Of a stretch of 64,000 nt of DNA, positions 5,922 to 55,546 are shown in pieces. The notes beneath the pieces were generated by a model. It was not told the origin of the DNA. It did no database searches and saw nothing but the letters and a program-made list of their open reading frames with translations. Where the stretch lies: positions 1-64,000 of IMG/VR virus record IMGVR_UViG_3300028840_004184, one strand, 5' to 3'. The first letter of the stretch is position 1. Every line of letters begins with the position of its first letter. The position numbers were made by a program, and so were the translations under genes. Source of the DNA: a virus.

Positions 5922-7385
5922 ATGACAACCGAAAGTAAAACTAGGAATTCTCCCGCTAGTATAGTAGAGGTCCATTATGGCGAATATCGTCTTATACCTG
6001 CTCCATTAATTCAATGGACCGAGGAGAGCGAGCATGACCCAGATACAAAAGGGCGTACCGTACAACGAACTAGATTGAAGCTCGATGGTACTTTTATTAT
6101 TTTACCAACCGGTACCTATGAAGGTATGTTCGAGATGCAGAAAGCGTTACGTAAAGCCTTTAGTGTTGATGGTCGAGAATTTCGCATCTTGGCTGGTGCT
6201 GGTAATACAACGTTGCCTTCTGGTGCTCCGATTGTCAGTGGCATGTTCCCGCTAGTTACTAATGTAGACATAGAGGCTGACTTGCAACACAATAGGGTTG
6301 ATTATACAGTCGATCTTGAGGTTGAAGCGGCGTCTACTAGTGGTCAGGCGTTTGAAAGTCTAACCGATACGTGGGACTTAACAGAAAATCCGGATGGTTT
6401 ATATCTAGATGTTGTGCATAATGTGTCGGCTAGAGGTATTAACACTTTAGCTTCTGGAACAAACGCTGTACATAATGCCATCAATGCCGTTTATCCACTT
6501 CTTGGTGTTGACAAGATGCCTTATTATTTGCCATATTATACGGAGCCAAATGCTAGCGGTGGCGGCACTGTACAAATGTATCATGTTGCCGTTAATCGTA
6601 CCGAGCAGATAGACACAAGGGGTGGTAATTATTCTGTTACGGAGAGTTTCATTTTAGCTTCTGGTACTGACCCATATGTGCATAGTGTCAACTCTAGTTT
6701 CGATGAAGACGAAGATGGCATAGCCACAGTTAAGGTTAATGGCAAGATACAGGGCTTGGGGCGTAGTAATTTTAATGGTGATAATGGCGGTATTGCTTTT
6801 GATAGAGCCCTTAATGGTTTTTCGACTGATATACAGCCTAACTTACCATCTACTGCTTCTGGTGTGTATTTAAGATACAAGAGTGGGACTTTATATACGA
6901 CCAATCATCTTGGTTTTTCAATCAGTGAAAACAGAACGCGTGGTACTATCAATTACAGTATTAGTTATAATGATGACCCAGCAGAGAATTTGCCTAGCGG
7001 TATTGTTGAGGCGACATCATCAGTACAGCGTACAGATGGTATACGTCTTTATGGTTCGCATCCTATTCCGTTTCGAAGATTAGGCAATGTTGTGCAGGAT
7101 ATTAAAACAACCACCGAGGGACAAATGGTTATTACTGCTTCAGCTAAAGCCGAGAATACTGGTGATGCTACAGCAGATACCAATAGAGCTATTTTACATG
7201 TACAAGATGAAATTAATAGATTAAAACCTAATTCTGCTGATTTTCAAACCCTTAGACCTGGTGCGATGACTGAGAATCATAGCGACAAGGAACTTACTGC
7301 TCAAGCTAGTGTGACCTATATTTTTACTATTGATCTGGCTAGTGTTTTTGAGGTGGATAGTGATATCGCGTTACACACGCTTTAG
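5922..7385 (+). CDS. Putative tail/baseplate structural protein
   Basis: 487 aa, beta-strand-rich, immediately after TMP; 9 Ser-Gly dipeptides. Confidence 0.6.
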   Translation: MTTESKTRNSPASIVEVHYGEYRLIPAPLIQWTEESEHDPDTKGRTVQRTRLKLDGTFIILPTGTYEGMFEMQKALRKAFSVDGREFRILAGAGNTTLPSGAPIVSGMFPLVTNVDIEADLQHNRVDYTVDLEVEAASTSGQAFESLTDTWDLTENPDGLYLDVVHNVSARGINTLASGTNAVHNAINAVYPLLGVDKMPYYLPYYTEPNASGGGTVQMYHVAVNRTEQIDTRGGNYSVTESFILASGTDPYVHSVNSSFDEDEDGIATVKVNGKIQGLGRSNFNGDNGGIAFDRALNGFSTDIQPNLPSTASGVYLRYKSGTLYTTNHLGFSISENRTRGTINYSISYNDDPAENLPSGIVEATSSVQRTDGIRLYGSHPIPFRRLGNVVQDIKTTTEGQMVITASAKAENTGDATADTNRAILHVQDEINRLKPNSADFQTLRPGAMTENHSDKELTAQASVTYIFTIDLASVFEVDSDIALHTL

Positions 7386-7393
7386 GAAGGATA

Positions 7394-7960
7394 TTGACGA
7401 TGGTTAATGTACCTATAGTGGAAATACGAGAATGGGAAACCACAAGCAACCCTTCTGGTATTCGTATATCTGATGACACGGATACGTTGAACGCTAGTGG
7501 GTTTTTAGGAAGCCGTGGTACCGCTGCTGGAGATACTTTGATTTACCAGCCCCTTAATACAACTGTGTCTGGGCAAGTTAGTGATACCAAGATGTTGGTT
7601 GGTCATGTTGAGTCATGGGGAGATGCTAGTGGTATTTCCAATATGTCTCTTTTTATGTCGTCCTTAAGTCATTTTAACGCAGGTAATTATCGATTTTTAT
7701 ATAGATTTGCAACACATTGGGTAAGTGGCTTACAGCTTACGGAGAATGATAGCGATTTACCAACGTCACAACCTGGTTCGCAGACTGTATTTAGTACACT
7801 TGGTAGCGGGATATTAAAGGACACTGGTTATTATGATGAAACGCAGGCGACACAATATATGTATGTGGCTACGTTTATAGACTCTGATGTCCCTATTGGT
7901 ACATACGGCGGTCCTGGAACAGGCGGATTTCGCTATCGTTTTCTTTTTGATTTTAGTTAA
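7394..7960 (+). CDS. Putative virion structural protein (paralog of next ORF)
   Basis: 188 aa (start may be the ATG at 7400). Shares SNPSG and the C-terminal QYxY...PxGxYG...G..R..L.D pattern with 7970-8557. Confidence 0.55.
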   Translation: MTMVNVPIVEIREWETTSNPSGIRISDDTDTLNASGFLGSRGTAAGDTLIYQPLNTTVSGQVSDTKMLVGHVESWGDASGISNMSLFMSSLSHFNAGNYRFLYRFATHWVSGLQLTENDSDLPTSQPGSQTVFSTLGSGILKDTGYYDETQATQYMYVATFIDSDVPIGTYGGPGTGGFRYRFLFDFS

Positions 7961-7969
7961 GAGGGTAAA

Positions 7970-8557
7970 ATGAACGAAATGCCAGGCTTAACATGGTATC
8001 AATTTGATACTACTGAGTTATCCAACCCTTCTGGTGAGCGTCATATTGAAGGAGGGGCGTTTGCATTTGAGCGAGCAATAGCTAGTGGGACGTGTGCAAG
8101 TGGTATGGCTTTTCCTCAAATAACTATGGAGGTGCCTGGATATGCTGATCATTATGTTTCGCGTCCTGTGGCGGTAATATTCCGCCTCAGCACAATTGCT
8201 AGTGGCAGTGGTATCGCGGACATGAGATTTTATCTTACGGAGGATGCTGCTTTGAGCGGTGATGGAAATGAACCGAAGGCTTTTGTCCAGATTGCCGTTA
8301 GTGGTCAGTGGCTTCCTAATTGTACTATGCCGAGTGGAGCTAATGACAAGATGTATAAAAATGTTATTCCTGCTGTAGCAAATGTTAGTGGCCAGGCAGG
8401 TCAATTCGCTATTGAGGGAACAAACGACAATTTTGTTTCACAGTATATTTATATGAATGTAGTTGTTCCTAGTCGTTATCCTGTAGGGGATTATGGTATT
8501 TGTGGTAGTGGTCAGTTGCGTTTTTGTCTTTTGTATGATTATCAATCTATAATTTAG
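7970..8557 (+). CDS. Putative virion structural protein, very Ser-Gly rich
   Basis: 195 aa; 10 of 16 serines are followed by Gly; paralog of the upstream ORF. Confidence 0.55.
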   Translation: MNEMPGLTWYQFDTTELSNPSGERHIEGGAFAFERAIASGTCASGMAFPQITMEVPGYADHYVSRPVAVIFRLSTIASGSGIADMRFYLTEDAALSGDGNEPKAFVQIAVSGQWLPNCTMPSGANDKMYKNVIPAVANVSGQAGQFAIEGTNDNFVSQYIYMNVVVPSRYPVGDYGICGSGQLRFCLLYDYQSII

Positions 8558-8570
8558 TGTATATATTATA
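8555..8570 (+). promoter_or_regulatory. Candidate phage (late) promoter motif TAGTGTATA-N3/4-TATA, copy 1
   Basis: Same motif recurs at gene boundaries 19468 and 63002. Confidence 0.4.
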
Positions 8571-8662
8571 TGCAACTCGGCTCTGCTCAAGAGCTACATC
8601 CTCCCAAAATGTCGTTTTTTTCAATTTATTCATTTCTGTGTAGGTTTGCAGGAGGTGCAAAG

Positions 8663-8851
8663 ATGGCTACTATTAATTCGACTTCTTCTACGAATAACGT
8701 CAACCAGATTTTGTATAGTTGGAGTACCGTAATGGAGTATTTCACTGATCGTAAGGCTGGTAGCGTTGCTGCTCGTGACAGCATTGTAAAGCTTCAGGGT
8801 CTTGGCGTTAGCGTGACTGTGACAAATCCTTTTACAAGCAAGTCTTCGTAA
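8663..8851 (+). CDS. Small 62-aa Ser/Thr-rich hypothetical protein
   Basis: Strong RBS GGAGGT at 8651-8656 supports ATG 8663 over 8570; followed by a terminator. Confidence 0.65.
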   Translation: MATINSTSSTNNVNQILYSWSTVMEYFTDRKAGSVAARDSIVKLQGLGVSVTVTNPFTSKSS

Positions 8852-8871
8852 TTGAGGGTAGGTAGTTAGGG

Positions 8872-8904
8872 GATGGTCGGGGATTTCCCCGACCATCTAT
8901 TTTT
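8872..8904 (+). terminator. Rho-independent terminator
   Basis: Perfect 11-bp stem GATGGTCGGGG/CCCCGACCATC, loop ATTT, followed by TATTTTT. Confidence 0.8.
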
Positions 8905-8917
8905 AAGGTACATAATT

Positions 8918-9364
8918 ATGATTAAGCCAACGATACACCATGATAATACAAGTGGGGTTATCAGGTTTAATACTCATTTGAATAAGCCCGTGATCTATAC
9001 AATGTGTAAAATGGAGCATGAGGCTTTTTTTATTAGTTATACGGCTGTAAATAATCTAGTTGTATTACCAGCACAAGTATCATCGGTTTGGCCTAAATAT
9101 TTGCAGGCATTTTTGTTTGGTGGTAAGAAAGTTAATGCTGATTATCGTGGCAACAGCTTTCATTGTGGTAAAGAGATATACGTTGCCGAGAATGTTGATG
9201 CGATTTTGCGAGGCGACGAGTATGAGTGGGTTGCTTTAGTAGATGTCCCTCATGATATTAGATGTGTGTATGTTAATTTAGATGTGTATGATGGTAAGAA
9301 GCATGTCAGGAGATTACAAATTGATACCTTTTTTGGGCGTAGCAGGGCAATAAATTATGAGTAG
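8918..9364 (+). CDS. Hypothetical protein
   Basis: ATG 8918 lies downstream of the terminator after AAGG; the ORF-track start 8873 lies inside the hairpin. Confidence 0.55.
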   Translation: MIKPTIHHDNTSGVIRFNTHLNKPVIYTMCKMEHEAFFISYTAVNNLVVLPAQVSSVWPKYLQAFLFGGKKVNADYRGNSFHCGKEIYVAENVDAILRGDEYEWVALVDVPHDIRCVYVNLDVYDGKKHVRRLQIDTFFGRSRAINYE

Positions 9365-12179
9365 CTTGTCAGTTTATGATAGTAATCTGTTAATGTTTTA
9401 TAGGTTTGATTCACCTAGTGGTGGTGCTATTCAGAATCGTGCATATTACCGTCCTAGAACTCAGCCCGATGGTTCTGATTTGAATACTGATTTGGCTTGG
9501 TACGATAATCATATTGCTGCTTCTCCTGGTATTCCTGGTTATCATGCGTGGAAGTTGGTAGACTTGACTGAACTTCATGCTTCGGGTTTGGGTGAATTAT
9601 ATTTACCTGGTCAGTGGGGAAGTCCTAGCGGTAATGCATTTACAGACAATGGTCATCATTTGGCTATATCTGGCTTGTTGTATGATCATACTATGACGAC
9701 GAGCATATCTCATCTTCACAAGCTGAGGTTAGAGGATGATAGTGACGCTAATTTAGATGGTACTTCAATTGCACAAGCTATGGCTTCAGGCGATGTTACT
9801 TTTGGTGGATGGGTCAGGTCTTTTACGTATAAGCCTTTGACATATATGTCTATGATTGGTTTTACTCAGGTTAATACTGGGTTTAGTTCGCCATGGCTGT
9901 TTTTAGAACAAAATAATACTGGTGATAGAGACTTTGAATTAAATTTGGTTAATGCTGGTACTTTGACAACTGGTGCTGGGAAACCCTCTGGTAGTACTGG
10001 TGGTCTTCCTGGAGATATGAATGTATATAATCCTCCGTGGGGAGGATGGAACCACGTCGCGTTTTCTCTAAAGTATGGTGGTGATGGTGGGGGCATATAT
10101 GCTAGATCTTATTTAAATGGTCATCAGGTTGAAACAAGTAATAATGCTAATTGGGACGCGAAGAGGTTTGTCGCAAGGTTTTTCTATGTTGGTGGCTTGA
10201 ATTCTACTACTAATAGTGTTGGACAGGGGTGTACTGCATGGAAAGACTTTTTCTTGTTCGATCGCGTTTTATCTTCTGGTGAAATTTATCATGTTTTTAA
10301 TAATAGTATAAGTGAAACGCCAATATTAACAAGCCAGGATAATGATTTGCTTTTGTGGTATCGGTTTGTTGAGCATAGTGGAGTACCTGTCAGAAGCTGG
10401 GCAGCAAATACGCCGAACCAGGATCTGAGTGGTGGGTCACTTGATCCTTATCTTTATTGGCATGATTATCCACCAGATCCGATTTATGGTTTATTTAGAG
10501 TAGAGGCCGATTTGCCTGAGGCGTCTGGGGCGTGGTTTCCTTCGCAGTGGAATGCTCAGTATCCTGATCAGGTTAGAGTTTGTGCTTCTGGTAATACTAC
10601 TAATCCGTTCCACGGCATCCGTGGAACAAATATAGATCACTCTGATATTAGTCATGCTATTTCTTCTGGTAGTTTTACCATGTCCATGTGGGTAAATCCT
10701 AGATATTATTCTTCATACAGGGTCCCATTTGTTTGGAGCAGGGGTGATGAAGACACTGTTTCTATTGGATTGAATTGTACGAGTGCATCGCAAGTTAGAA
10801 TTAGATATAACGATGGTACTGGTAGCGATCACTCTTTGTATAGCACTAGTAATCCGCCGTCTGGTTATTTTTGGAATCATGTGTGTGTTGTACATCCCAG
10901 TGGTGGGTTTGACGGTTCTTCCGATACAGCCAGACTGTATGTGAATGGTAGTTTGGCAGGCAGTACTACTGATCCAGATTTCAATAGTCTTGCTGTGCCT
11001 TATTTGGTCAGTTTTTTCAATTACCATGATGAATGGTCAGATTCTCAATTTTTGGGTGGTATTAAGGATTTTACGCTTTGGAAGAGGACACTGGAGCCAC
11101 ACGAGATCCGCTCTTTGTTTGGTCGCGGTATTGATTTAATTTCAAGTAAGGCGAGTGGGACGATCGGCGGACATACGCTTGGTCGTACTAGGACATCTGG
11201 TGTATTCGGTGGATATATTGATGCGTGGGCTTATCAGGCTAGCGGTGTTTTTGGTGGTCACACGCTTGGTAGATGGCGTGGATCTGGTGTGCATGGCGGA
11301 TATGTTTTTTGTGGCAATAGGGTGTCTGGTGTACATGGTGGATTTATTTATTGTAGTGGTATAGGCTCTGGTGTCCATGGTGGATATTGTTTTGGTATTT
11401 TAAAAGCTTCTGGTGCTATAGGTGGTCGTACTTTTTCTGTGGTCAAGACTAGCGGAGCGTGTGGTGGTTTTGTTCATTGTGGTTTACAGGGGTCTGGTGT
11501 ATTTGACTCGTCTATGAGGGTCAGAGCAATTACGTTTTCTGATGTTGATGCTTTAGTAGAGGTTAAAAATACAATTAATAAGGATTTTGATGCCGAAATA
11601 GAAGTTTACAAAAACGAAAGACCTCCATTTGTAGCCATAGAGTATCCCCCACCAGAGATTGTTAGTGGTATACCACCTAGCAGTGTGTGGTTTGTAGGTA
11701 GTGGTGTCGCCGTGGACGGTAAGCAGATAGACAGTGCTAAGTATCTTTTCGGTGATTTAACATCTCACGCCAATGGTATTCCGTCTGGCAGCGACCAATA
11801 TGTTTCTACGTATACTTATGCTAATAGTGGTCTTTATATAGCTACATTGCGGGTTGTAGATAATAATGGGTTGGTTGGCAGCGACTCTGTTATTGTTGAT
11901 CTTGCTAGTGGCGTTCCGTTACCAGATGTTGAATTAACAGCTAGTCCACGTAGTGGAAACGCCCCACTATCTGTTGATTTTGATTATAGTGTTACTAGTG
12001 TACCCAATGGCGTAACTGTTACATCAGCTATTTTATATTTTGGTAATGGACAGTCAACAGTTAACCCAGATACTACCTATGTGTACAGAGAACCTGGGGT
12101 TTACACTCCTATATTGTGTATTTTGGATAGTAGGGGTATCATTACGTGTGATTCATTAACGATTGGGGTTAATAATTAA
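9357..12179 (+). CDS. Tail fibre/adhesin-like protein: two LamG (ConA-like) domains, 14-aa SGxxGG repeats, C-terminal PKD-like domains
   Basis: Duplicated LamG motifs (WNHVAF/WNHVCV, YLNG/YVNG, DRVLSSGEI/KRTLEPHEI). PKD-type motifs (YTYANSGLYIATLRVVDNNG, SGNAPLSVDF, FGNG...YVYREPGVY). Confidence 0.7.
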   Translation: MSSLSVYDSNLLMFYRFDSPSGGAIQNRAYYRPRTQPDGSDLNTDLAWYDNHIAASPGIPGYHAWKLVDLTELHASGLGELYLPGQWGSPSGNAFTDNGHHLAISGLLYDHTMTTSISHLHKLRLEDDSDANLDGTSIAQAMASGDVTFGGWVRSFTYKPLTYMSMIGFTQVNTGFSSPWLFLEQNNTGDRDFELNLVNAGTLTTGAGKPSGSTGGLPGDMNVYNPPWGGWNHVAFSLKYGGDGGGIYARSYLNGHQVETSNNANWDAKRFVARFFYVGGLNSTTNSVGQGCTAWKDFFLFDRVLSSGEIYHVFNNSISETPILTSQDNDLLLWYRFVEHSGVPVRSWAANTPNQDLSGGSLDPYLYWHDYPPDPIYGLFRVEADLPEASGAWFPSQWNAQYPDQVRVCASGNTTNPFHGIRGTNIDHSDISHAISSGSFTMSMWVNPRYYSSYRVPFVWSRGDEDTVSIGLNCTSASQVRIRYNDGTGSDHSLYSTSNPPSGYFWNHVCVVHPSGGFDGSSDTARLYVNGSLAGSTTDPDFNSLAVPYLVSFFNYHDEWSDSQFLGGIKDFTLWKRTLEPHEIRSLFGRGIDLISSKASGTIGGHTLGRTRTSGVFGGYIDAWAYQASGVFGGHTLGRWRGSGVHGGYVFCGNRVSGVHGGFIYCSGIGSGVHGGYCFGILKASGAIGGRTFSVVKTSGACGGFVHCGLQGSGVFDSSMRVRAITFSDVDALVEVKNTINKDFDAEIEVYKNERPPFVAIEYPPPEIVSGIPPSSVWFVGSGVAVDGKQIDSAKYLFGDLTSHANGIPSGSDQYVSTYTYANSGLYIATLRVVDNNGLVGSDSVIVDLASGVPLPDVELTASPRSGNAPLSVDFDYSVTSVPNGVTVTSAILYFGNGQSTVNPDTTYVYREPGVYTPILCILDSRGIITCDSLTIGVNN
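11151..11507 (+). repeat. In-frame tandem repeat, about 9 units of ~42 nt (14 aa, SGxxGG...)
   Basis: SGTIGGHTLGRTRT/SGVFGGYIDAWAYQA/SGVFGGHTLGRWRG/SGVHGGYVFCGNRV/SGVHGGFIYCSGIG/SGVHGGYCFGILKA/SGAIGGRTFSVVKT/SGACGGFVHCGLQG/SGVF. Confidence 0.85.
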
Positions 12180-15100
12180 TGGCTAATAATACTATATTAG
12201 TTAGCGGCGTTGGTGTGCCGGATTTTGCTATACCGTTTCCTAGCGGTCAGATTGATGCTGGTTATCCAGGATCTAATCTGTATGCATTTTTAGCCAGTGC
12301 AAATGCTAATTTTGGTTTTAATTTAACGCCTAATACTCTGGAAATGAATTTTATGCCTGTGCCTCGTGATGAGACTATATATCATGGTGCTAGTGGAAAT
12401 TTACCAACCGTCGGTATGTTTCTTGAGATGTTTATTGAGGATTTTTATTTTCGTGGTAGAATCAATCATGCTGATTATAATAATAGTGATGCTGGTACAA
12501 TTATACGTATTACTCTAGAAGATACAAGACGTTCTTTAGACAAAATAAAAATACACACAGAGGATCTTGGCGATAATGTACCTAGCGGTGTTGTGTCTAT
12601 AGGCAGAGCCTACCGTATTTTGCATGGTTTGACTGATGATGATGGTGCTGAGGTTGATGGGCTTGTTTTTGAATATAACGAGATTATGGATCGTGGGGCT
12701 ACATATAGTCAAATAATCGAAGCCTTACAGCTAGCTATTAATGAAAGACAAATTAATTTATCAATCAACCAAGTGCCTCCATTAAGTAAGCTTGAAGCTA
12801 ATATTGGTGGTACTATTGAGGCCTTGCGATTTAAATTTGATATGACAAGTTTAACAGAGGCCATAACGACCGTGTTGCAAGACTGTGCATACGATTGGTA
12901 TTGGAATATGAATACCAATAGTGTCTCTTTGATAAATCGTAAAGCTGCATTTGAATTGACCGAATCTAATTTAATGAGCCTAATTAATAAAGTGAGTGGT
13001 TATAGCGATGTGTCAGAGGGGACTAAGCGACTTGGTTTTGGCGAGGACGCCGTTCAAGAACCAACAAGGTTCCGTTTATTGGGTGGGCGACAGCAGGGTT
13101 TTATTAATTCGGAGTTATTGAGTCCTGTTGATGGTTTGGATACGTCGTCTCTTGATAATAATGTGACTTTTGTCCCGGCGTGGTCTGATATCAGTGTTGG
13201 ATTTTACGATGCTGATGGTTTTTATAGAACGTATACTCCCACAGATAAAGAATTACAAATGGCTCTCGCTGGTATTGAGCACTGGACTTATTTCAAAATC
13301 TATCAGTCTGAGCCAGCACCAGATGGGTTTGGCTTAGCATCAGATGTTGGGTCTATTGCAGCACAGCATTCGACTTTTCAAAGCAGATTTGATCCTTCTG
13401 AAACTTTGGCTGATATGGTTGCCGGTTCTGATGCAGATAATAGTTTGCGTATTATTAATAATCGTAGAGATGAAGAACATAATTGGGTGAATGATTTTTT
13501 TAATAGAGTAAATAATCATGCCCAGAGGCATTTCGGTAGATCATATGTTGCTGAGGGTATTGCCTATAATGAATCATCAGGTTTATTTAAGCCAATAGAT
13601 GCTGCCTGGTGCAACATAGAGAATCAAATAGAGGGACAAAGCGTTGGTGTCAGCGGATCTTTTGGTCCGTTTGTAGATGATTATGAGATCAATCGTTTAT
13701 TTGGTCCAGTTGCACCGTTTTTAACCGATGATTTTCGCGTATCGGCACACTGTGTACTCCCACCAGATACTCGTTATGGAGCGGATGGAGACCAGGCACC
13801 GGCTAGTTTTTCTGAGTGGACAGAAGACGCACCACCATTTAATCCATCTGGCAATGGCTATCATTACATACCGTGTTCTATTTCTGTGGTTGGAAGAAGA
13901 GTCAAAAATCCTCGTAGTGATGACTTGTATAGTTTTGAAGATTATCCTGATGGGACGCTATGGGTGCAATTGCCTACTATTGCTGGTTCGAAAAGCGAGG
14001 ATAGCGTGTTAGCTAATTTATCCACTTTAATCGAATTGAGCAGGAGTGCAAGTAGTCAGGGATTATTTGATGTTGCTAATCCAGCACAATTAATAGAGCC
14101 ATACAGTTCTTTAAGTGGTGTTGCTATTCCCGTTGAGTCACGTATACGCTATGGACAAAATTTCCCATCCCAGTGGGTTTTGGGCGACGAGCATTATCAG
14201 CGTGGTGAAGACGTTGTTGTTGATGATGCATTTGTTCCTTGGGGCTTTTATCCTGTTGGTAATGATACTTCGTTGGAGGTTATGACCAATAGGGCTGTGA
14301 GAAAAGTACAAGGACGCTTTGTTGACAATATATTTTCAAGATATGCTGATATTAGTCAGGTTGGATTGCCGACAGTTGGTTTTGATAGTTTCGCGGACCA
14401 GGGTGCCAGTGCTTCCGGAGTTTATGGTGAAAGATCCCATGGTGTTACAGAGCTTAATATTGTTATTGGACAGACTGGGTATGAAACAAGATATAAAATT
14501 GCGTCATATTTTGCTACATTTGGAAGAGAGGCCCCACTTGGTGAAAGACAAAGGACACAAGTTAATGGTATTTTACATCCGATAGATTATACTCTTTTAA
14601 CATTAACTAATCCTATCCCTGGTGATCCATCCTCACCAGCGGTAGCTGACTCTTTATATAGTATACCGCCTTCAGTAGGTGATAAGAAAACAGCACGTAG
14701 AGTAACAATCACTGAGGTAAATGATGTCTTTACGTTAGTCTACAAGAATAATCCAGCACTAGGTCCTATACAGGAACGTTATCGTGGTAAGACTGAAACT
14801 GGTGATTATGATGCACCTAATCCTAATCGAGGATCACATATCGATTATACAAATGGTGCTATATGCGTGGATGGTTTTTTGAATTACAGTGATAGGGCTA
14901 TGTATCATACGGATGATTACGAGCTTGCTACAGGCAATGTTGTCTATCGTTATTTCACTGGTGGTCGTAAATTCGGTGCTGGGAATATTGTCGATGTAAA
15001 AGAATACCTTGGTTATGATGGTACATATCATAGATATAACGTAGAGATGGTTCAGGGAGCGGGTCGTGCCTTAATTAATACTCCTCTCCTTAATGGTACA

Positions 15101-15439: not shown

Positions 15440-15440
15440 G

Positions 15441-19490: not shown

Positions 19491-19519
19491 ATTTTATTTT
19501 CGATATAAGGAGGTTGAAG

Positions 19520-31592: not shown

Positions 31593-31593
31593 C

Positions 31594-41389: not shown

Positions 41390-41702
41390 GTGTATTGTTT
41401 GTAAAAGTGAGTTTTATACTCTTCCTGATTATGTCGAAGAGATTCGTAAAAAAGATGATGATCCCATTTGCCCTTTTTGTGATCCTGAGCCGGGCAAGTC
41501 AATATCAAGGTGTTTTGAGGTCGGTGATGTTGAGTTTGATGATCGATCTAAGCTTGAGGCAGATGATATTGAAAATACTGTCGAATTTTTGAAGGAAGTT
41601 GAAAAAGAGATATCTGGGCAATTCGATCAAGCTTACCATAGAATAGAAAGACTAAAAAGACAAAAGGTTGAAGATAGCGGAGACACCAATGAGCCAGAAT
41701 AA
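41370..41702 (+). CDS. Small zinc-finger hypothetical protein
   Basis: CIVC...CPFC followed by a coiled-coil-like tail. Confidence 0.55.
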   Translation: MKLIRFKCIVCKSEFYTLPDYVEEIRKKDDDPICPFCDPEPGKSISRCFEVGDVEFDDRSKLEADDIENTVEFLKEVEKEISGQFDQAYHRIERLKRQKVEDSGDTNEPE

Positions 41703-47079: not shown

Positions 47080-47633
47080 TGTCTAATATATTTTTTATCG
47101 CTGATACTCATTTCGGACACGCTAATATTTCTAAATATTGTAATCGTCCTTTCTCTTCGAAAGAAATGGACGAAATGATGATCGAGCGTTGGAATAATGT
47201 TGTCAAATGTCATGATCTTATATATCATTTGGGCGACTTCGCGTTCTGTTGTAGTCCTGCATATGCCGAAAATGTTTTAAAACATCTTAATGGACAGATA
47301 TATCTTTGTAAAGGATCGCATGATAAAATTGTTCTAAAAAATAAATGTAGAACATATTTTGCGGATATTCAAGAATCATTTTATTTACATATTCACAAGG
47401 GAATATTCTTGGCTCATTGTTGTCATAAGGTTTGGCATAAATCTCATCATGGATCATGGCATCTTTTTGGTCATAGTCATGGTGGGCTTGATAACTATGC
47501 TCACAACGAGGGTAAGTTACTGGATGTGGGAGTAGACAGTAATGATTTTACGCCATGGCATATCGATGAGGTCCGGGCCGTTATGGCTAAGCGTCCCTTA
47601 AATTTTAATGATCTACAAAGGAGAGAAAATTGA
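47079..47633 (+). CDS. Calcineurin-like metallophosphoesterase
   Basis: ADTHFGH, HLGDF, GSHD (GNHD variant), LFGHSH, DVGVD. Confidence 0.88.
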   Translation: MSNIFFIADTHFGHANISKYCNRPFSSKEMDEMMIERWNNVVKCHDLIYHLGDFAFCCSPAYAENVLKHLNGQIYLCKGSHDKIVLKNKCRTYFADIQESFYLHIHKGIFLAHCCHKVWHKSHHGSWHLFGHSHGGLDNYAHNEGKLLDVGVDSNDFTPWHIDEVRAVMAKRPLNFNDLQRREN

Positions 47634-48634
47634 AGATAGGAATCTATACTACTGCACTTGGCTCGCATATTTCTGGTGGTATACTATGTATTGTTGAAAC
47701 ACTGAATGCACTTATCAGGCTTGGACATGAATGTTGCTGTTTTGTGGACGATAAGCCGTATCGATCGGACTGGTTAAAAACTGATTTCCCTGTTTTACCA
47801 TCTGATGAGATCGATAGTTTTGATGGTATACTGGTGTCTCCATATTCGCCAACGGCTGAAAGGGTTGCTTTTGCCAAAAATGCCGATGAGAGGTTCTACT
47901 GGGTGCATACCAATGAATCTTTATTCTGTCATAATGGACCGGAGTGGCAGGACCAGGCACGCAGATCATATCATTTGCCATTGAAGATTTTTTGTACATC
48001 TACATATGTACAGATTTTGATGGAAACTGTTTTTAATAGATATGTTATCGGTGCTTTAGTCCCGCCCGGCATAGACCCACAAACATTTTTCCCTAGCAAT
48101 CCGTTACAAAATAAAGATGTAGTGAACGTAGGTATGCTTCATCGTCCTGATTGGGTCAGGGGGCATGACGTTGCAGTACTTGGTATGCAGTTAGCACAAA
48201 GGACACTCGGTAAACATATGAATTCTGTGGTTATCGGTCCTACGTCAGATCGTCGTCAAATGGCTAACAGGATGCGATCCTTAGATATTTTTATTGACCC
48301 AAGTCGCGTTGCTGGTAGCCCGACTCCTGTTAAGGAGGCCATGGCGTGTGGGGCAATACCCATTTGTACAAAATATGGAACGACCGACTTTGTTCTTGAT
48401 GGTTACAATGGTCGTATCATCCCCCCTGACAATATAATGTCTTTGTCTAATCAGATAGTTAGTATTGCAAATCTTTCTTATGAAAAGCGTTGTGATATAG
48501 CCTCTCAGGCTGCTGAATATGTTAAACAGTTTTCGTGGGATCATATAGCTATGCGTTTTGAATCAGCCCTTGGAGAGGGCATTAATCGTGGCGACGAGTT
48601 ACTTAAGACAAGAAATTGGAATGAACCCAAATGA
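47630..48634 (+). CDS. GT4 glycosyltransferase
   Basis: ISGG, PPGID..TF, EAMACG, DGYNG, FSWD. Confidence 0.85.
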   Translation: MKIGIYTTALGSHISGGILCIVETLNALIRLGHECCCFVDDKPYRSDWLKTDFPVLPSDEIDSFDGILVSPYSPTAERVAFAKNADERFYWVHTNESLFCHNGPEWQDQARRSYHLPLKIFCTSTYVQILMETVFNRYVIGALVPPGIDPQTFFPSNPLQNKDVVNVGMLHRPDWVRGHDVAVLGMQLAQRTLGKHMNSVVIGPTSDRRQMANRMRSLDIFIDPSRVAGSPTPVKEAMACGAIPICTKYGTTDFVLDGYNGRIIPPDNIMSLSNQIVSIANLSYEKRCDIASQAAEYVKQFSWDHIAMRFESALGEGINRGDELLKTRNWNEPK

Positions 48635-48987
48635 AACATATAAATATGTATATCAAATGTTGTAACGAGTGTCCTTTTTTAAAAATGGATGATTACGCTA
48701 GACCTGGATATATATGGTGGTGTGAATGCAAGGGAGCACCACAGGGTGATAGGGGGCATGTTTTAGATATGCACGAACGAGGAAAAGATATACCCGTGTG
48801 GTGTCCACTACCAGATGCACACGCACTGGAGTTGCCTATGTTGGCCGCATGTATTAAGCCGGTAGAAAACAAGTGCCCAAAATGTAGAACCGTGGGTGAA
48901 GTTGGAATGATAAAATGCGATAACAATGGCGTGCATCAAAATTATCAATGTCCAAAATGTGGCTGCGGGTGGAGTGACAGAATTTGA
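48631..48987 (+). CDS. Cys-rich zinc-binding hypothetical protein
   Basis: CNECP, IPVWCPLPD, CPKC...CPKC. Confidence 0.55.
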   Translation: MKHINMYIKCCNECPFLKMDDYARPGYIWWCECKGAPQGDRGHVLDMHERGKDIPVWCPLPDAHALELPMLAACIKPVENKCPKCRTVGEVGMIKCDNNGVHQNYQCPKCGCGWSDRI

Positions 48988-49883
48988 AGATACTAGTATC
49001 GTATAGAGGCATACCACAATCTCCTGGTTGGGCTACGGGAGATCTCGTATTTAATGCTTTTAAGAGCATGGGGTATGAGGTGTACACCTACGGATATTAT
49101 TATCAGAACCCCAAGAATAGACTGCCTAATAATCTAACTATAGAACAGGCGAAACGCGAAACTTGGGACCTTGTTCTTTATATGGAATGTAATGACCCAG
49201 ACCCACAATATGTGGAGCTTAAACATTTAAATTCTAAGAAGTTTGTATACTGGGATTTTGACGCTTCGTATCATCTTGATCATACTCTTGGTTTCGTAAA
49301 CTATATGAGGTTTGATCATATATTTTGTGCTAATATTTTACTTAAGGAGTATTTTAAAAGATATGCACCTACTACCATATTACCATACGCTTTTTGTAAA
49401 GACAAACACTGTATAGTAACACAACCGGATAGAACAATGAGATTTGCTATGGTCGGTAGTAACTGGGGCGAGCGACAAAAGATTTATGAAGCTTTGATTA
49501 AGGAGCGAATTCCTGTTGATTTAGTAGTAAATAAATTTCGCGAAGAATACATAGAGGCATTGGCGTCTACGCATGTATGCATAAATCATAATGTTAAGAG
49601 TGGAAGAGGACTATTAGTGATGCGTATTTTTGAAGCCTTAGGAGCGAAGACGTGTCTGTTGACTAATGATGCCGATGGAATTCAACATTTTTTGACACCG
49701 GACCAGGATTGCATAGTGTATAAAGATATTCCGCACCTTATTGAAATTTGTCGTGGTTTGAACGCACCAAAGGGTATGATACTTGCTGACCAGATAGCCG
49801 AGATCGGACATAAAACTGGTATAGATAGGCATACGTATCATCATAGATGCCAGAAAATATTAAGAGTTTTAAACTTGGAGTAA
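48984..49883 (+). CDS. GT-B glycosyltransferase, CgeB-like
   Basis: FVYWDFD, LPYA, VGS, MRIFEALGAKTCLLT, IAE.G...HTY.HR. Confidence 0.8.
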   Translation: MKILVSYRGIPQSPGWATGDLVFNAFKSMGYEVYTYGYYYQNPKNRLPNNLTIEQAKRETWDLVLYMECNDPDPQYVELKHLNSKKFVYWDFDASYHLDHTLGFVNYMRFDHIFCANILLKEYFKRYAPTTILPYAFCKDKHCIVTQPDRTMRFAMVGSNWGERQKIYEALIKERIPVDLVVNKFREEYIEALASTHVCINHNVKSGRGLLVMRIFEALGAKTCLLTNDADGIQHFLTPDQDCIVYKDIPHLIEICRGLNAPKGMILADQIAEIGHKTGIDRHTYHHRCQKILRVLNLE

Positions 49884-49888
49884 TAGTA

Positions 49889-50575
49889 GTGAGAGATTTG
49901 ACCTTATTAATTTGTAACCATAATCACGGCCACTTCCTAAAACGCATGCTGCGGGACGTTTTTAATCAAACCCTTAACCCAGATCGCTGGAAGTTAATAA
50001 TCATCCATGATGAATGCTCTGATGGCTCAGAGGAGATTTTTGACGAGGTATGGACAGAACTTTGTTCAGCCTCAGGACGCCCGGTAGATTGGCTGCCGTG
50101 TTTTTCTTTTGTTAAGGAGAAGAAGAAGGGTTTGGCTAATTGTAAGAACTTTGGTCTTAGTCGTTGTGATACCAAGTATGTAGCTTACCTGGATGTAGAT
50201 GATGGCATGCTCCCAGAAAGACTTGCTACGCAGCTTGGTTTTTTAGAGAATAACCCAGAAATAGATGCGGTTTTTACACAAGCCTGGGATCTTAACGACA
50301 AGGGACAGCTTCTTGTAAATTGTTTTGGTATAAATACTTATATAACGCATAACGATATAGCTGCTGCTTTACATCATGAAAACGTGTTGATGCACGGTTC
50401 TGCTATGATAAAAATGGATGCTATCAAGATTGTTGGTGGTTATGATGAGTCAGGCAGGCTTAAAGGACGAGAAGACTGGGGTTTGTGGCTAAAAATGCTT
50501 CGGGCTGGCTATAAGTTTTACAAGATTAATGAGAGGTTATGTATATATAGCTTGGGTACTTCGGTGGAGAGATAA
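49889..50575 (+). CDS. Glycosyltransferase family 2
   Basis: NQT, DECSDGS, KGLA..KN.GL, AYLDVDD...PERL..Q, VGGYDE, EDWGLWLKM; GTG 49889 after GGAG. Confidence 0.9.
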   Translation: MRDLTLLICNHNHGHFLKRMLRDVFNQTLNPDRWKLIIIHDECSDGSEEIFDEVWTELCSASGRPVDWLPCFSFVKEKKKGLANCKNFGLSRCDTKYVAYLDVDDGMLPERLATQLGFLENNPEIDAVFTQAWDLNDKGQLLVNCFGINTYITHNDIAAALHHENVLMHGSAMIKMDAIKIVGGYDESGRLKGREDWGLWLKMLRAGYKFYKINERLCIYSLGTSVER

Positions 50576-50579
50576 CGCG

Positions 50580-51032
50580 ATGCGTGCAATATGTTCATGG
50601 TTGTTGAATATAAGAGCAAAAATCGGTGACGGTGTACGTAAATTAGGACTACTGATTATACCTAGAAGATATAGATTTTTGTATGTTACGAAGGGCATTA
50701 AAGCATTGAAATGTCTGGATGTTGATCAGGAATTTTATAGCCCCGGTGCTCCTTATACATGGGTGTCATTTGGGCAGTGTCCATATACTAAGGAGTGTAC
50801 AAGCAACCAGTGTTTTTTCAAAAGAAGAGATTGTTGTGGATACCAACCGTGGGCTACTGCATATAAAAATCAGGATGTTGTAGATAATGAAAAAAGAATG
50901 ACGGATAGATATGGTAAAGTCGTATTTCCTGAATTTGATATGGGGGTAGGTACAAATTGTATACGTATCGTTTGTAAAAGTGCTAAGGGTTATAGAGACA
51001 TAGACTATAGGGGTAGAGAGGTAACGCGATGA
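50580..51032 (+). CDS. Cys-rich hypothetical protein
   Basis: ORF after the GT2 stop; ATG 50580 preceded by GGAG. Confidence 0.45.
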   Translation: MRAICSWLLNIRAKIGDGVRKLGLLIIPRRYRFLYVTKGIKALKCLDVDQEFYSPGAPYTWVSFGQCPYTKECTSNQCFFKRRDCCGYQPWATAYKNQDVVDNEKRMTDRYGKVVFPEFDMGVGTNCIRIVCKSAKGYRDIDYRGREVTR

Positions 51033-51247
51033 TTTTTCTTAAGTCGTTTAATAATTCTGTTGGACCAGCTTGTCAGTTGATGCCTAACGTTTCTCCTCCA
51101 CCGGTATGGATTGATTATGCACAAGAACAAAAGATGAGTGAAATTTCTGATAGCTTTAAGCAGATATCAGCCAAGATAGATAAGCTTTCGAGTTTATTAG
51201 AGCAACTTACAAAAACTTTGGATGGATTAATTAATGAACGAACATAG
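51029..51247 (+). CDS. Hypothetical coiled-coil protein
   Basis: 72-aa ORF with GAGG RBS and overlapping start/stop. Confidence 0.5.
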   Translation: MIFLKSFNNSVGPACQLMPNVSPPPVWIDYAQEQKMSEISDSFKQISAKIDKLSSLLEQLTKTLDGLINERT

Positions 51248-52244
51248 AATTCTTTATTGCAGTCTTAAGTATGATTATGCTGAGCCTGATCGTGGACTGT
51301 CTTATGAGGCTCTTAATCTTGAACATGGTATGCGTGAGTGTGCCGAGAACGGACTGTTCGATCTTGAGGTTTTTCATATTGATGATGAGCATATTAAGCT
51401 TGGACAAGAACAGGCGGACGTTAAGCTTATTGATGTGATTAGAAGATATAAGCCAACCATTTTATTTCATACGTCGTTTGATGATAACTGGGATATTGAT
51501 CCTGAGACGTTATTGTGGTGTAAAGAAGAAGGTATTAAAACAGTTCTTTGGAATTGTGATGCGTCTTGGAGGTTCAAAGATTTTATTCTTCCACGAAAGA
51601 GTAGGTATACTCATTTTATTACAACACATAATGTTACTATCCCTTGGTTTAAACAAGAGGGAATGAAGGTTATCAAGAGCCAATGGGGCGGATCTTCTTT
51701 GTATACTAGGTACATGAATAAGTCAGCGGGTGGCGTTAAGTTATACGATGTTTCTTTTGTAGGACAAAAGCATGGCATTAGGCCACAATTGGTTCATGCA
51801 TTAAATAATGCGGGAATTAAGGTGCATTTGTTTGGAAATTATTGGGACGGGCACCCCGATGATCATGGCTTTATTTCTTTTGACGATATGATTAATGTAT
51901 TTAATCAAACAAAGATAAATCTAAATTTTTCTAATCCGTTTCAAGTAAATACAGTGCCACAGATCAAGGGTAGACATTTCGAGATACCGCAGTGTGGCGG
52001 CTTCCAACTATCTACTATTGCTGATGATATAGAGTCTTACTTTGTTTCGGATAAGGAAATTGTTCTTGTTGATAGTGTACCTAAGCTGATTAATAGTATC
52101 CGACATTATCTTGGTCATGATGATGAAAGAGAAGCTGTCGCAGAGGCTGGTTTTCAACGTATGATGAAGGAACATCAATGGGAACATCGGTTTGAGCATA
52201 TTTTAAAGGAGATTGACAAAAATGAAAACGGAACTAGAAGCTAG
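51234..52244 (+). CDS. GT-B glycosyltransferase, CgeB-like
   Basis: W.CD..WRF, YDVSFVGQ, FG..W, KINLNFS, IKGRHFEIP.CGGF.L, HQWEHR. Confidence 0.88.
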   Translation: MNEHRILYCSLKYDYAEPDRGLSYEALNLEHGMRECAENGLFDLEVFHIDDEHIKLGQEQADVKLIDVIRRYKPTILFHTSFDDNWDIDPETLLWCKEEGIKTVLWNCDASWRFKDFILPRKSRYTHFITTHNVTIPWFKQEGMKVIKSQWGGSSLYTRYMNKSAGGVKLYDVSFVGQKHGIRPQLVHALNNAGIKVHLFGNYWDGHPDDHGFISFDDMINVFNQTKINLNFSNPFQVNTVPQIKGRHFEIPQCGGFQLSTIADDIESYFVSDKEIVLVDSVPKLINSIRHYLGHDDEREAVAEAGFQRMMKEHQWEHRFEHILKEIDKNENGTRS

Positions 52245-52476: not shown

Positions 52477-52489
52477 TAAGGAGGCATGA

Positions 52490-53458
52490 ATGAATTTACT
52501 TATCACTGGAGCTAATGGTTTCGTGGGTAAACACTTGGTCAAACTTCTCGCAAAGAAGAGGCCAGATATTAAGCTTTTTACACCATCACACGATACGTTC
52601 GATTTGCTCGATTCGTGTCATTTGTATGGATATTTAGACACATTTAAGATTGACCATATCGTACATTTGGCCGCCCGAGTTGGTGGTATCGGTGCTAATC
52701 AGAGTAAACCCGCGACTTTTCTCTATGATAATCTTTTGATGGGTATGAATATCGTACACGCAGCTAATAGCACCCCAGGTGTTAAGAAGCTTATTAACAT
52801 AGGGACAATTTGTAGTTATCCAAAACATACAGAGGTGCCATTTAAAGAAGAGAATATTTGGGATGGCTACCCCGAAGAAACAAATGCTCCTTATGGTATA
52901 GCTAAGCGTGCTGTGATGGCATATGCCATAGCATCTAATTTTCAGTACGGTACTAATGTAGTTAATTTGATGGCTGTTAATATGGCTGGTGAATATGATA
53001 ATTTTCATCCTCTCACATCACATGTTATACCAGCTATAATTTTGAAGATCGATAAGGCAATGGATGATGGTGATTCCGATATCAAATTATGGGGTACCGG
53101 TCAGGCAACCCGTGAATTTTTGTATGCTGGTGATTGTGCTCGTGCAATACTAATGTCTTTGGAGACTCATGTGGGGCCTGATCCGGTGAATATTGGTACA
53201 GGCAAAGAGATTACTATTCGCGTTCTCGCAAACGCTATTAAAAGTTTTATGAAGTACCAGGGGAATATTATGTTTACCTCTCAGGTATCTGATGGTCAAC
53301 CAAGACGTTGTTTAGATGTTTCTAGAGCTAAAAAGATATTTGGTTTTAAGCCCGAGGTAGATTTGTCAGAAATGATTCGGCGAGAAGTTCAATATTATTA
53401 TAGTCTTAAAGAACAGAATCCCGAATTAATAGATTCGTATAGAGCAATGATTAGCTAA
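52490..53458 (+). CDS. fcl: GDP-L-fucose synthase (GDP-4-keto-6-deoxymannose epimerase/reductase)
   Basis: GANGFVG, HLAARVGGIGAN, GTICSYPK, YPEETNAPYGIAK, SHVIPA, WGTG.ATREF, DGQPRRCLD. Confidence 0.93.
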   Translation: MNLLITGANGFVGKHLVKLLAKKRPDIKLFTPSHDTFDLLDSCHLYGYLDTFKIDHIVHLAARVGGIGANQSKPATFLYDNLLMGMNIVHAANSTPGVKKLINIGTICSYPKHTEVPFKEENIWDGYPEETNAPYGIAKRAVMAYAIASNFQYGTNVVNLMAVNMAGEYDNFHPLTSHVIPAIILKIDKAMDDGDSDIKLWGTGQATREFLYAGDCARAILMSLETHVGPDPVNIGTGKEITIRVLANAIKSFMKYQGNIMFTSQVSDGQPRRCLDVSRAKKIFGFKPEVDLSEMIRREVQYYYSLKEQNPELIDSYRAMIS

Positions 53459-53467
53459 GGAGGATAA

Positions 53468-55546
53468 ATGAAGACTGCTGTTATAACAGGTATAACTGGT
53501 CAAGATGGTTTTTATTTGGCGTCTTTGCTGTTAAGTAAAGGATATGTGGTTGTTGGTATAAAAAGGCGTACTTCTACCCCTCATGATCAAAGGCTAAGGA
53601 TGTTGAAGCACCAGAATCTTTTTTTGGTTAGTGGTGATGTAACTGATTCGGCTTCAATACAACGTATAGTGACTAAGTACCAACCAGATGAGTTTTATCA
53701 TTTGGCGGCAATGTCTCACGTTGGTTTTTCGTCAGAAGCACCTCAGATTACTCAGGATATTAATTGTGCTGGTACAGTGAATACTCTTGAAGCTATTAAG
53801 GATTTAAAGCCAGATTGTAGGTATTATTTCGCGGCGAGTTCTGAGATGTTTGGTAACCAGCTTGAAGAATCTAGTCTTGTCGCTCGTGCTCCGTCTACTA
53901 TCAGGTTGAATGAATTGTCCAAAATGGAGCCTCGCTCGCCTTATGGTGCATCAAAGATTTTTGGTTTTGGTATGACGAAACACTATAGGGAAGCTTATGG
54001 GTTATTTGCGTGCAACGGCATACTTTTCAACCATGAGTCAGCGTTGCGTGGTGAAAATTTTGTTACTCGTAAAATAACAAAATCTATAGCAGATATTGTT
54101 GCTGGTCGTAGTGACAAAATAACGCTTGGTAACATAGATGCTAAGAGAGACTGGGGTTTCGCGGGTGATTATTGTATCAATTTAGACGTGCCCATTCTTA
54201 CAATAAATGGCTGGAAGTATTATGACGAAATAAGTATTGGTGACATTATTGTCAATTTTGATACTAAAATGAATAGATTGTCTCGTGACAGGGTGTTGAA
54301 CAAAGTTGTTAAGAGTAGTAGCGGCGACAAGATTTTGTTTACTGGGCGGGGGCTACACTTAAATGTTACTTTGGACCATAGGATGTATTATCAGCGTAAG
54401 TCTACTAAATCTAAAGGGGGTTGGTCTGACTGGAAGGTTATGATGGCACAAGAGTTATATGATGTACTTAATGATAAATCATTAAGGACTAAGTATGATT
54501 ATAGATTGCCGCATTTTCAGGATTATTATGTTGGCGATAGTGGTAATTGTTCTATGTTTACTGATGATGAATTATATTTAATTGGTGCATTGTTGGCAGA
54601 AGGCAGTTTAGATAGTCGTTTTTTTAATGGACGTAAAGTAAGTATATCTCAGTCTTTTGTTGCTAATGAAAGTATTTTAGATAAGATTATTGATATTGTT
54701 GATCGACTTGGCTTGATATATAGAAAGAGAGTCAGAAACGATGGTGTATATGAATTAATCTTTGATGCTCAGAGTAGTGACATTATTTTGTCTCGTTATT
54801 TTGATGAAGATAATGTTCATATTATGCCCAGATCTCTGTATGATGTCGATAGTAGACAGGCTGCTATTATTTTTGGTGCGTTGATGGATTGTGATGGATC
54901 TTGGGGCAGCATGTCGTTTTCATCCAAGAGGTCTTTATTGGCTGTTGATTTTCAAACTATTGCACATTTGGCTGGATATAGAACAACGGCAGTAAAACAA
55001 TTAGAGAATGGAATGTTTCGTGTTGGTGTTATTGCTAAACGTAAGAAATATTCCTATATTCAGGATGTTGAAAAATATAATGATAGTCATGGTAAAGTAT
55101 GGTGTGTCACTACTAGTAATCAAACAATTGTGACTCGCGATCATGGCTGTGTAAATATTTCTGGTAACTGTCGTGCTATGCATATGATGCTTAATCATCA
55201 TGAACCTGATGATTTTGTGATAGCCACTGGCGAATGTTATTCGGTAAAAGATTTTTTAGTTAAGGCGTTTGGATGTGCGGGTTTTGATGAATCGCCCCAA
55301 GAGTTGATTGATAAGTATGTTGTTTTCGATGAGAGATTTCTTCGACCATCTGATATTCATATACTGAAAGGTGATTCTACTAAAGCTAGAAAAATATTAG
55401 GCTGGAAGCCAAAAATGACATTTAATCAATTGGTTTTATCAATGGTTCAGTATGATCAAGAACAAGGCGTCGAAGGTAGGAGCGGTCGTCATTTTGTTTT
55501 TGATGCATTGGGATCTAAGAGTTTCGTAGAGGAAGGTATAAAATGA
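53468..55546 (+). CDS. gmd: GDP-mannose 4,6-dehydratase containing an intein
   Basis: ITGITGQDG, SHVG.S, SSEMFG, PRSPYG.SK, GILFNHES..RG..FVTRKI, RDWGFAGDY|intein|CRAM..ML...PDDFVIATG, LKGD..KA...LGW. Confidence 0.95.
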   Translation: MKTAVITGITGQDGFYLASLLLSKGYVVVGIKRRTSTPHDQRLRMLKHQNLFLVSGDVTDSASIQRIVTKYQPDEFYHLAAMSHVGFSSEAPQITQDINCAGTVNTLEAIKDLKPDCRYYFAASSEMFGNQLEESSLVARAPSTIRLNELSKMEPRSPYGASKIFGFGMTKHYREAYGLFACNGILFNHESALRGENFVTRKITKSIADIVAGRSDKITLGNIDAKRDWGFAGDYCINLDVPILTINGWKYYDEISIGDIIVNFDTKMNRLSRDRVLNKVVKSSSGDKILFTGRGLHLNVTLDHRMYYQRKSTKSKGGWSDWKVMMAQELYDVLNDKSLRTKYDYRLPHFQDYYVGDSGNCSMFTDDELYLIGALLAEGSLDSRFFNGRKVSISQSFVANESILDKIIDIVDRLGLIYRKRVRNDGVYELIFDAQSSDIILSRYFDEDNVHIMPRSLYDVDSRQAAIIFGALMDCDGSWGSMSFSSKRSLLAVDFQTIAHLAGYRTTAVKQLENGMFRVGVIAKRKKYSYIQDVEKYNDSHGKVWCVTTSNQTIVTRDHGCVNISGNCRAMHMMLNHHEPDDFVIATGECYSVKDFLVKAFGCAGFDESPQELIDKYVVFDERFLRPSDIHILKGDSTKARKILGWKPKMTFNQLVLSMVQYDQEQGVEGRSGRHFVFDALGSKSFVEEGIK
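54173..55168 (+). mobile_element. Intein (332 aa) with LAGLIDADG homing endonuclease in gmd
   Basis: Starts CINLDVPILT.NGWK; block B VTLDHR; LAGLIDADG-like LIGALLAEG and GALMDCDG; ends VWCVT...VNISGN followed by +1 Cys. Removal leaves a normal-length Gmd of about 360 aa. Confidence 0.92.

Follow-up and report, generated by a model that had tools for sequence, protein, structure and literature searches.

The first 64,000 nucleotides (nt) of IMG/VR record IMGVR_UViG_3300028840_004184 (hereafter the window) belong to the 170,410 bp sequence, bounded by direct terminal repeats, of an uncultured marine phage of ~170 kb from a siphovirus-like superfamily. The window displays both a marked excess of the dipeptide Ser-Gly (SG) in tail-tip and fibre proteins and a large set of enzymes for glycan synthesis (hereafter the kit). 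Both features are real; a connection between them is unproven. We tentatively propose cytoplasmic assembly by the kit of a methylated glycan that contains fucose, with virion proteins as the most likely acceptor, and consider it unlikely that the serine of SG is the site at which this glycan is attached.

The SG excess lies in nine tail open reading frames (ORFs) at 5922–20260, together 4749 amino acids (aa), which include the following:

5922–7385, + strand: tail-tip protein directly 3' of the tape measure gene, with a predicted tail-tube-like fold (Dit or hub type); 9 SG vs 3.1 expected
7394–7960 and 7970–8557, + strand: two paralogous small beta-sandwich tail proteins; 6 and 10 SG
9357–12179, + strand: tail protein of 940 aa in which Laminin_G_3 and PKD domains are recognised; 30 SG
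12179–15439, + strand: conserved 1086-aa tail protein; at least 120 homologs with a mean SG ratio (observed to expected) of 1.97
15441–20260, + strand: variable fibre/receptor-binding-like protein of 1349 aa (16 SG vs 7.9 expected) and tail protein of 248 aa (5 vs 3.1)

The nine ORFs contain 89 SG pairs compared to 40.5 expected from composition, while the reverse dipeptide GS shows no excess (40 vs 40.4). In 2000 within-protein shuffles SG averaged 40.6 (standard deviation 5.6, maximum 59), which places the observed count at z = 8.6. Among all 400 dipeptides SG is the strongest outlier, with no enrichment of other xG or Sx pairs, and the SG-rich character of these ORFs that had been noted in the initial annotation is thus borne out. 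Sixty-four of the 89 sites are of the form [APVSG]-S-G. Approximately nine tandem 14-residue units of the SGVxGG type in the 940-aa protein (nt 11142–11517) hold 10 of its 30 SG pairs, and the overall ratio is still 2.16 when these repeats are left out. Both boxes of Ser codons are used in SG and off-frame hexamers are not enriched, thus the signal is at the protein level and a cause at the DNA level can be ruled out. The sites have a distinctive context, [A/P]-S-G-[V/F/I/L/Q]: alanine or proline precedes 36% of them, compared to 11% in the background and 13% in the cyanophage control, and a hydrophobic residue follows 51%, compared to 34% and 32% respectively, with glutamine at the same position enriched 3.7-fold.

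The SG ratio is 0.72 in the tape measure protein and 1.2–1.3 in the remaining genome. Among controls, T4, T5 and lambda give 1.22 for their tail and fibre proteins, and P-SSM2 and P-SSM4 give 1.35 and 1.34 for their large proteins; these five unrelated phages (1.22–1.35) rule out the excess as a generic property of tail proteins. Substitution of SG for the deamidation-prone pairs NG and DG was also considered and accounts for less than 10% of the surplus: both are only slightly lower in the SG-rich clade described below (NG 0.84 vs 0.94, DG 0.94 vs 1.06), a deficit of ~26 pairs set against 285 extra SG. Ser content in that clade is 9.7% compared to 7.4%, and the extra Ser about equals the SG surplus.

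The excess is shared by relatives. In 39 IMG/VR relatives, the orthologous members of six families of tail proteins have SG ratios of 2.0–3.0 (mean 2.84 for the tail-tip protein at 5922–7385) with GS at ~1.0–1.3, except in one small tail-protein family at 1.84, while the neighbouring replication proteins of the same relatives have SG near 1; the excess is therefore a trait of the lineage and not a peculiarity of one genome. Half or more of 120 homologs of the 1086-aa protein preserve SG at 16 columns, compared to five or six columns for GS, and Ser is conserved at 0.69 within SG compared to 0.35 for other Ser. These 16 columns are ~94% retained, and where SG is lost the replacement is N, D or G in 42 of 114 cases and T in 13. 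More distant lineages, at 42% and 25% identity, show ratios of 2–2.6, non-homologous fibre ORFs included, and the homolog at 25% identity has 24 SG (ratio 2.3) even though only three of the 16 positions are retained in it. In the Dit-like protein that is shared with a sister clade, other dipeptides occupy the SG columns there, hence the fold does not itself require SG.

Two of the tail proteins were modelled. The AlphaFold2 model of the tail-tip protein (predicted local distance difference test score, pLDDT, 74) gave weak Foldseek matches to the lambda tail cap and tube, the T5 tail tip and SPP1 Dit, as expected for a protein in this position. The model of the 195-aa protein at 7970–8557 (pLDDT 76, predicted template modelling score 0.79) has its SG pairs at strand ends and in loops, and yielded no clear match in a Foldseek search of the PDB. 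Across both models, a loop or strand end is the location of ~15 of the 19 SG pairs. Beyond the window, fibre-like ORFs at genome positions 63990–65480 and 67016–69190 have an SG ratio of 2.4. Three fibre-like ORFs lie between 63990 and 69190; two of them are rich in SG and contain recurrent HALSGLWGL-type units, and a right-handed beta-helix domain is present in the other. The motif [S/T]-G-S shows no enrichment, with ratios of 1.23 in the tail block and 0.31 in these additional fibres. Separately, both large tail proteins carry PSGQID close to their N-termini (12239–12256, aa 21; 15699–15716, aa 87), a hexapeptide that may be a docking motif common to the 1086-aa and 1349-aa proteins.

The kit was defined by Pfam scans of 59 of the ORFs of the window. 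It consists of a first enzyme block (29649–33832), a core pair of glycosyltransferases (GTs) directly behind genes for the DNA polymerase PolIIIalpha and the single-stranded DNA-binding protein SSB, and a main array followed by the genes for GDP-L-fucose synthesis:

29649–30563, + strand: weak GT2 match, below the Pfam cut-off
30563–31069, + strand: methyltransferase, firm match
31513–32280, + strand: weak FkbM-like methyltransferase match
32277–32996, + strand: methyltransferase, firm match
32993–33832, + strand: sulfotransferase-like ORF exactly at the Pfam cut-off, with an RNPxD motif
38334–40199, + strand: core GT4 of 621 aa; DUF4214 domain, plus a Lys-rich loop and Cys4 insert
40199–41389, + strand: core GT4 of 396 aa, the second of the core pair, which occurs throughout the superfamily
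41668–42732, + strand: GT2-like transferase, Pfam match below cut-off; clear orthologs in SG-rich genomes only
43365–52244, + strand: main transferase array, with GT2 at 43365 and 49847, GT4 at 44219, 46015 and 47630, Glyco_trans_1_2 at 48984 and 51234, and a firm methyltransferase at 45342
47079, + strand: weak metallophosphoesterase-like match within the main array
52490–53458, + strand: Fcl (E = 2e-59 against solved GDP-L-fucose synthases)
53468–55546, + strand: Gmd (E = 3e-102)

Eleven GTs are thus encoded in the window (those at 29649 and 41668 being below cut-off), none of which has a hydrophobic segment, and this agrees with the set of about 11 soluble enzymes proposed initially. A twelfth, of the Glyco_trans_1_2 type, lies at genome positions 151435–151788, ~1.5 kb upstream of the large terminase gene, and is paired with a GT2 in most close relatives. 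The estimate of five or six S-adenosylmethionine (SAM) dependent methyltransferases was too high, as we find three firm matches and one weak FkbM-like match. Gmd and Fcl, the only sugar-nucleotide enzymes of the short-chain dehydrogenase/reductase type among the scanned ORFs, suggest that the kit can make GDP-L-fucose, and their annotation stands. The Gmd ORF contains an intein-like insert of 332 aa (nt 54173–55168) with two LAGLIDADG-like blocks, which starts with Cys and terminates in Gly-Asn followed by Cys; the Gmd proteins of relatives are uninterrupted, at 332–366 aa. The sulfotransferase-like ORF is likewise present as annotated, with a degenerate first motif for binding 3'-phosphoadenosine-5'-phosphosulfate, but sulfation of the glycan is doubtful, as it would depend on a borderline match in a gene that the six close relatives lack.

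The genome appears to lack the means to export a glycan. Six-frame searches of the whole genome gave no match to Bac_transf, Glycos_transf_4 or ABC_tran, and no polytopic membrane protein of transporter size is encoded anywhere in it, hence the absence of Wzx/Wzy, an ABC exporter and a phosphoglycosyl transferase that was noted for the window holds genome-wide. With no priming enzyme or flippase found in the genome, neither a Wzx/Wzy-dependent nor an ABC-dependent assembly route is encoded, although the host could supply these parts.

Relatives of the 621-aa core GT4 number 277 in IMG/VR, and the Atlas clusters closest to this protein are viral with few exceptions. Its Cys4 insert consists of a CxxC at aa 319 and another at aa 353, both invariant in eight orthologs, and is immediately preceded by the Lys-rich loop (KSKKQSKKKPK, aa 301–311). 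Comparison of this protein and of the GT2-like transferase at 41668 with solved structures and the Atlas returned nothing informative beyond generic families, the clusters closest to the two being mostly viral, and an NCBIfam search with ten of the enzymes gave only matches far below threshold.

Much of the kit is conserved. GTs are carried by every relative searched, and Gmd too by all close relatives; ten of the transferases and Fcl have orthologs in six close relatives at 35–54% identity. In the first block only the genes at 29649 and 30563 have orthologs in close relatives, and the members specific to this genome are three methyltransferases, the sulfotransferase-like ORF and one GT4. The core pair (38334 and 40199) is among only 11 proteins common to all six distant genomes compared, a set that also holds the terminase, portal-size and capsid-size proteins, RecA and DnaB, and the core GT4 lies near PolIIIalpha in every lineage examined. 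The kit is therefore a conserved core module and no variable add-on.

If the glycan were attached at SG, the two features might be expected to vary together, as the initial annotation had proposed to examine across related genomes. Six whole records with the core GT4 were retrieved for this comparison (G020, G025 and G027–G030), and are given here together with the lineage at 25% identity (G015):

G020: tail SG ratio 2.6–2.8; 8 GTs
G025: tail SG ratio 1.9; 7 GTs
G027–G030 (sister clade): tail SG ratio 1.18–1.64, pooled 1.36, with GS at 1.14; 6–9 GTs
G015: SG ratio about 2.3; 1 GT in 76 kb, an ortholog of the core GT4

No link emerges from these genomes, nor from P-SSM2, which has a glycan cluster, and P-SSM4, which has none, as the two have equal SG in their large proteins. 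In trees of the core GT4, DnaB and RecA, G027–G030 group together with full support, opposite the SG-rich genomes, and G015 is an unstable long branch. All SG-rich genomes lying on one side of one deep split, the excess represents a single evolutionary event with no independent replication, and since the sister clade has the kit without the excess, the kit must be older and more widespread than the excess. Co-variation thus does not support a link between the two. A search by phyletic pattern for an enzyme linked to SG returned one candidate, the GT2-like transferase at 41668–42732, which may serve as a lead but is not evidence, as the pattern rests on the same single split.

We nonetheless tentatively favour synthesis of a glycan for the virion. 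The soluble GTs, GDP-L-fucose synthesis, a few SAM methyltransferases and the doubtful sulfotransferase would work jointly, building a partly methylated glycan on a phage-made macromolecule in the cytoplasm of the infected cell; that this macromolecule is protein, and is located on the virion, we infer from the kit. A stable set of enzymes beside variable fibre genes fits a glycan intrinsic to the virion better than a host-specific change of surface. This much of what was initially proposed, a virion glycan made by the phage, is reasonable given a soluble core kit that lacks export functions, while its attachment at SG is unsupported. In one deep clade of the superfamily, Ser is fixed before Gly at many strand-end and loop positions of tail-tip and fibre proteins. 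SG is attractive as an acceptor because its Ser is conserved, its density is kept in divergent homologs, it appears independent of fold and its flanks are distinctive. In the fullest form of the proposal, tail-tip and fibre proteins would be O-glycosylated at [A/P]-S-G-[hydrophobic/Q], with the GT2 at 41668–42732 and/or the Cys4 GT4 at 38334–40199 starting a fucose-containing, methylated chain that the remaining enzymes extend, which we regard as doubtful.

Several observations weigh against these proposals. G027–G030 have the same core pair and 6–9 transferases without an SG excess, and G015 has the excess with a single transferase in 76 kb. The main kit sits among replication genes and not with the structural ones, and C-terminal tails rich in Ser/Thr are absent from the capsid-size and tube-like proteins. 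Thr-Gly is not enriched (0.79–0.87), and within the clade at 50% identity 39 SG columns are new, compared to 65 for GS. Judged from sequence, the core GT4 could use its Cys4 insert and Lys-rich loop to bind DNA, membrane or (acidic) protein. Peripheral GT4 and GT2 enzymes of O-antigen pathways likewise have no membrane segments, so that lipid-linked acceptors would be compatible with the solubility of the enzymes encoded here.

SG may instead be a structural habit with no relation to the kit, in which a strand-end or turn dipeptide (the Ser side chain capping, the Gly providing backbone freedom) was fixed in one clade and inherited vertically; we put the chance of such a habit a little below even, and above that of SG as the acceptor. 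An excess concentrated in 16 conserved columns with few new ones is what a position-specific structural constraint predicts. The location of most modelled pairs in loops or at strand ends, the ~94% retention of those columns with the turn formers N, D and G outnumbering T as replacements, a rate of gain of SG columns no faster than that of GS columns, the absence of Thr-Gly enrichment, and the confinement of the excess to one clade and one event that does not track GT content are all consistent with this explanation. It accounts less readily for the different dipeptides at the SG columns of the sister-clade Dit-like fold, or for an excess of 2–2.6-fold shared by non-homologous, fast-changing fibres in several lineages; moreover, no other xG or Sx dipeptide is enriched, NG and DG replacement explains less than 10%, and the tails of unrelated phages reach only 1.2–1.35.

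The remaining explanations concern the target of the kit. It may remodel the host envelope by extending undecaprenyl-linked intermediates that the host primes and exports, masking receptors and so guarding against superinfection or the loss of progeny to cell debris. The 'LPS' (lipopolysaccharide) clusters of cyanophages are conventionally read in this way (PMC1079782, PMC12801897), loci for O-antigen and capsule typically combine GDP-fucose genes with GT4 and GT2 enzymes, and the Lys-rich loop of the core GT4 could bind an anionic membrane. However, a priming enzyme, flippase, polymerase, ligase and ABC exporter are all absent from the genome, host export machinery would need to accept a dozen foreign steps, and the kit is core and orthologous while the fibres vary, whereas host-surface genes are usually accessory (present in P-SSM2, absent from P-SSM4); we therefore think this explanation rather unlikely. 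Less probable in our view is that the kit, or at least the core pair, hypermodifies phage DNA with an oligosaccharide as protection against restriction. In every lineage examined the core pair comes straight after PolIIIalpha and SSB, genes for a deoxynucleoside monophosphate (dNMP) kinase, a dCMP deaminase and a deoxyribosyltransferase-like protein lie nearby, and the Cys4 ribbon and Lys-rich loop of the core GT4 would suit such a target, for which there is precedent in the ~1 kDa oligosaccharide on thymidine of YerA41 (PMC9023294) and in polyarabinosylated 5-hydroxycytosine (PMC13326640). The known routes to an acceptor are missing, however: ThyA (PF00303) and C5 methylase (PF00145) had no match in the genome while controls matched, and ThyX is canonical, making a DNA target by known routes unlikely. 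A search of the genome for TET/JBP was also empty, but its positive control was silent as well. In addition, 11 transferases and several methyltransferases far exceed any DNA glycan described, and the ready assembly of these genomes from standard metagenome libraries may argue against bulky adducts on every T or C.

The setting of the kit can be followed along the window, in which the majority of ORFs of at least 100 aa are on the + strand. The gene for a 1713-aa tape measure protein (PhageMin_Tail) is followed by the nine tail ORFs and then by RecA, DnaB, primase, the dNMP kinase, a PD-(D/E)XK nuclease and a ClpP-like protease, after which come the first enzyme block, PolIIIalpha and SSB, and the main array; downstream of the array lie Fcl, Gmd, ribonucleotide reductase and the dCMP deaminase. 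The terminase, portal-size and capsid-size genes are at 153–170 kb, indicating that the record is permuted across its ends. The ClpP-family protease (27692–28264) lies amid the replication genes, far from this head module. PolIIIalpha is a single long ORF here and in G027, and is split into two ORFs of ~545–725 aa in G028–G030 (e.g. 80493–85908 of G030). Among 50,697 phage records no cultured relative was found by megablast with 24 kb or by tblastn with the 1086-aa tail protein, and the terminase matched phage records at about 23–26% identity only. A PHROGs search with ten tail-region ORFs assigned no family.

What marine phages use large GT clusters for has been a question ever since cyanophage genomes first appeared in 2005. 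In the superfamily described here, which public viromes represent by hundreds of relatives, such a kit belongs to the core, and one clade adds a sharp protein-level signature on exposed parts of the tail. If the two prove to be linked, the tail of a bacteriophage would bear a sequon-directed glycan coat, and site-directed coats of this kind, if used, would bear on host recognition, virion stickiness, survival in seawater and the engineering of glycosylated phage particles. Without such a link, a structural explanation would still be needed for the SG signature.

In gene content the kit resembles those of eukaryotic giant viruses. The chlorovirus PBCV-1 and mimivirus encode soluble GTs, GDP-mannose dehydratase, fucose synthase and sugar methyltransferases, and make a fucose-containing, methylated glycan in the cytoplasm with no lipid carrier or export machinery, which is carried by fibrils or N-linked to the capsid protein at atypical sites. 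Soluble transferases, GDP-L-fucose synthesis and the lack of carrier and export parts are common to both. Among bacteriophages, Che8, Corndog and Myrna of mycobacteria are proposed to decorate structural proteins with GTs of their own (Freeman et al. 2023, as cited in PMC12619734 and PMC12801897). The use of phage-encoded cytoplasmic transferases is shared, but the mycobacteriophages are reported to have few transferases, beside structural genes, and glycans on the C-terminal tails of capsid and tail-tube subunits, whereas here 11 lie in the window amid replication genes and one Glyco_trans_1_2 lies outside it near the terminase, and the candidate sites are internal SG pairs of tail-tip and fibre proteins.

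Bacterial adhesin systems offer a parallel for the proposed chemistry. The BAHT heptosyltransferases TibC and Aah O-glycosylate adhesins at multiple Ser in the cytoplasm (PMC4358343), and SdgA and SdgB act on Ser-Asp repeats, where the dipeptide sets the site (PMC3794999); in such systems a soluble GT-B enzyme modifies many Ser of a beta-rich surface protein before export. TibC grips its substrate with an inserted metal finger of four Cys, to which the invariant Cys4 insert of the core GT4 may be similar, by analogy only; comparison of the core GT4 with PDB sequences returned only BshA-like GT4 enzymes at E of about 1e-3 and no TibC. Unlike in the adhesin systems, the genes for putative enzyme and substrate are not adjacent here. 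Animal proteoglycan xylosylation by GT14 also has Ser-Gly as its acceptor, but at sites with acidic flanks instead of A/P and hydrophobic residues or Q, and among the scanned ORFs there was no GT14 or UDP-xylose synthase, the GTs being of the GT1, GT2, GT4 and Glyco_trans_1_2 families only. Phages that glycosylate their DNA, such as T4 (glucosyl-hydroxymethylcytosine), RB69 and DLP3 (arabinosyl-5-hydroxycytosine, PMC13326640) and YerA41 (PMC9023294), similarly have GTs near replication or nucleotide genes and may place several sugars at each site, but the present genome has no ThyA-homolog step to create the acceptor hydroxyl. The clusters of cyanophages are comparable, being large sets of GTs and sugar epimerases in lytic marine phages, with 24 genes in the 'LPS' cluster of P-SSM2 (PMC1079782) and 13 GTs in S-SCSM2R (PMC12801897). 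Those clusters are accessory, P-SSM4 having no GT2 match, whereas the kit described here is core to a siphovirus-like superfamily.

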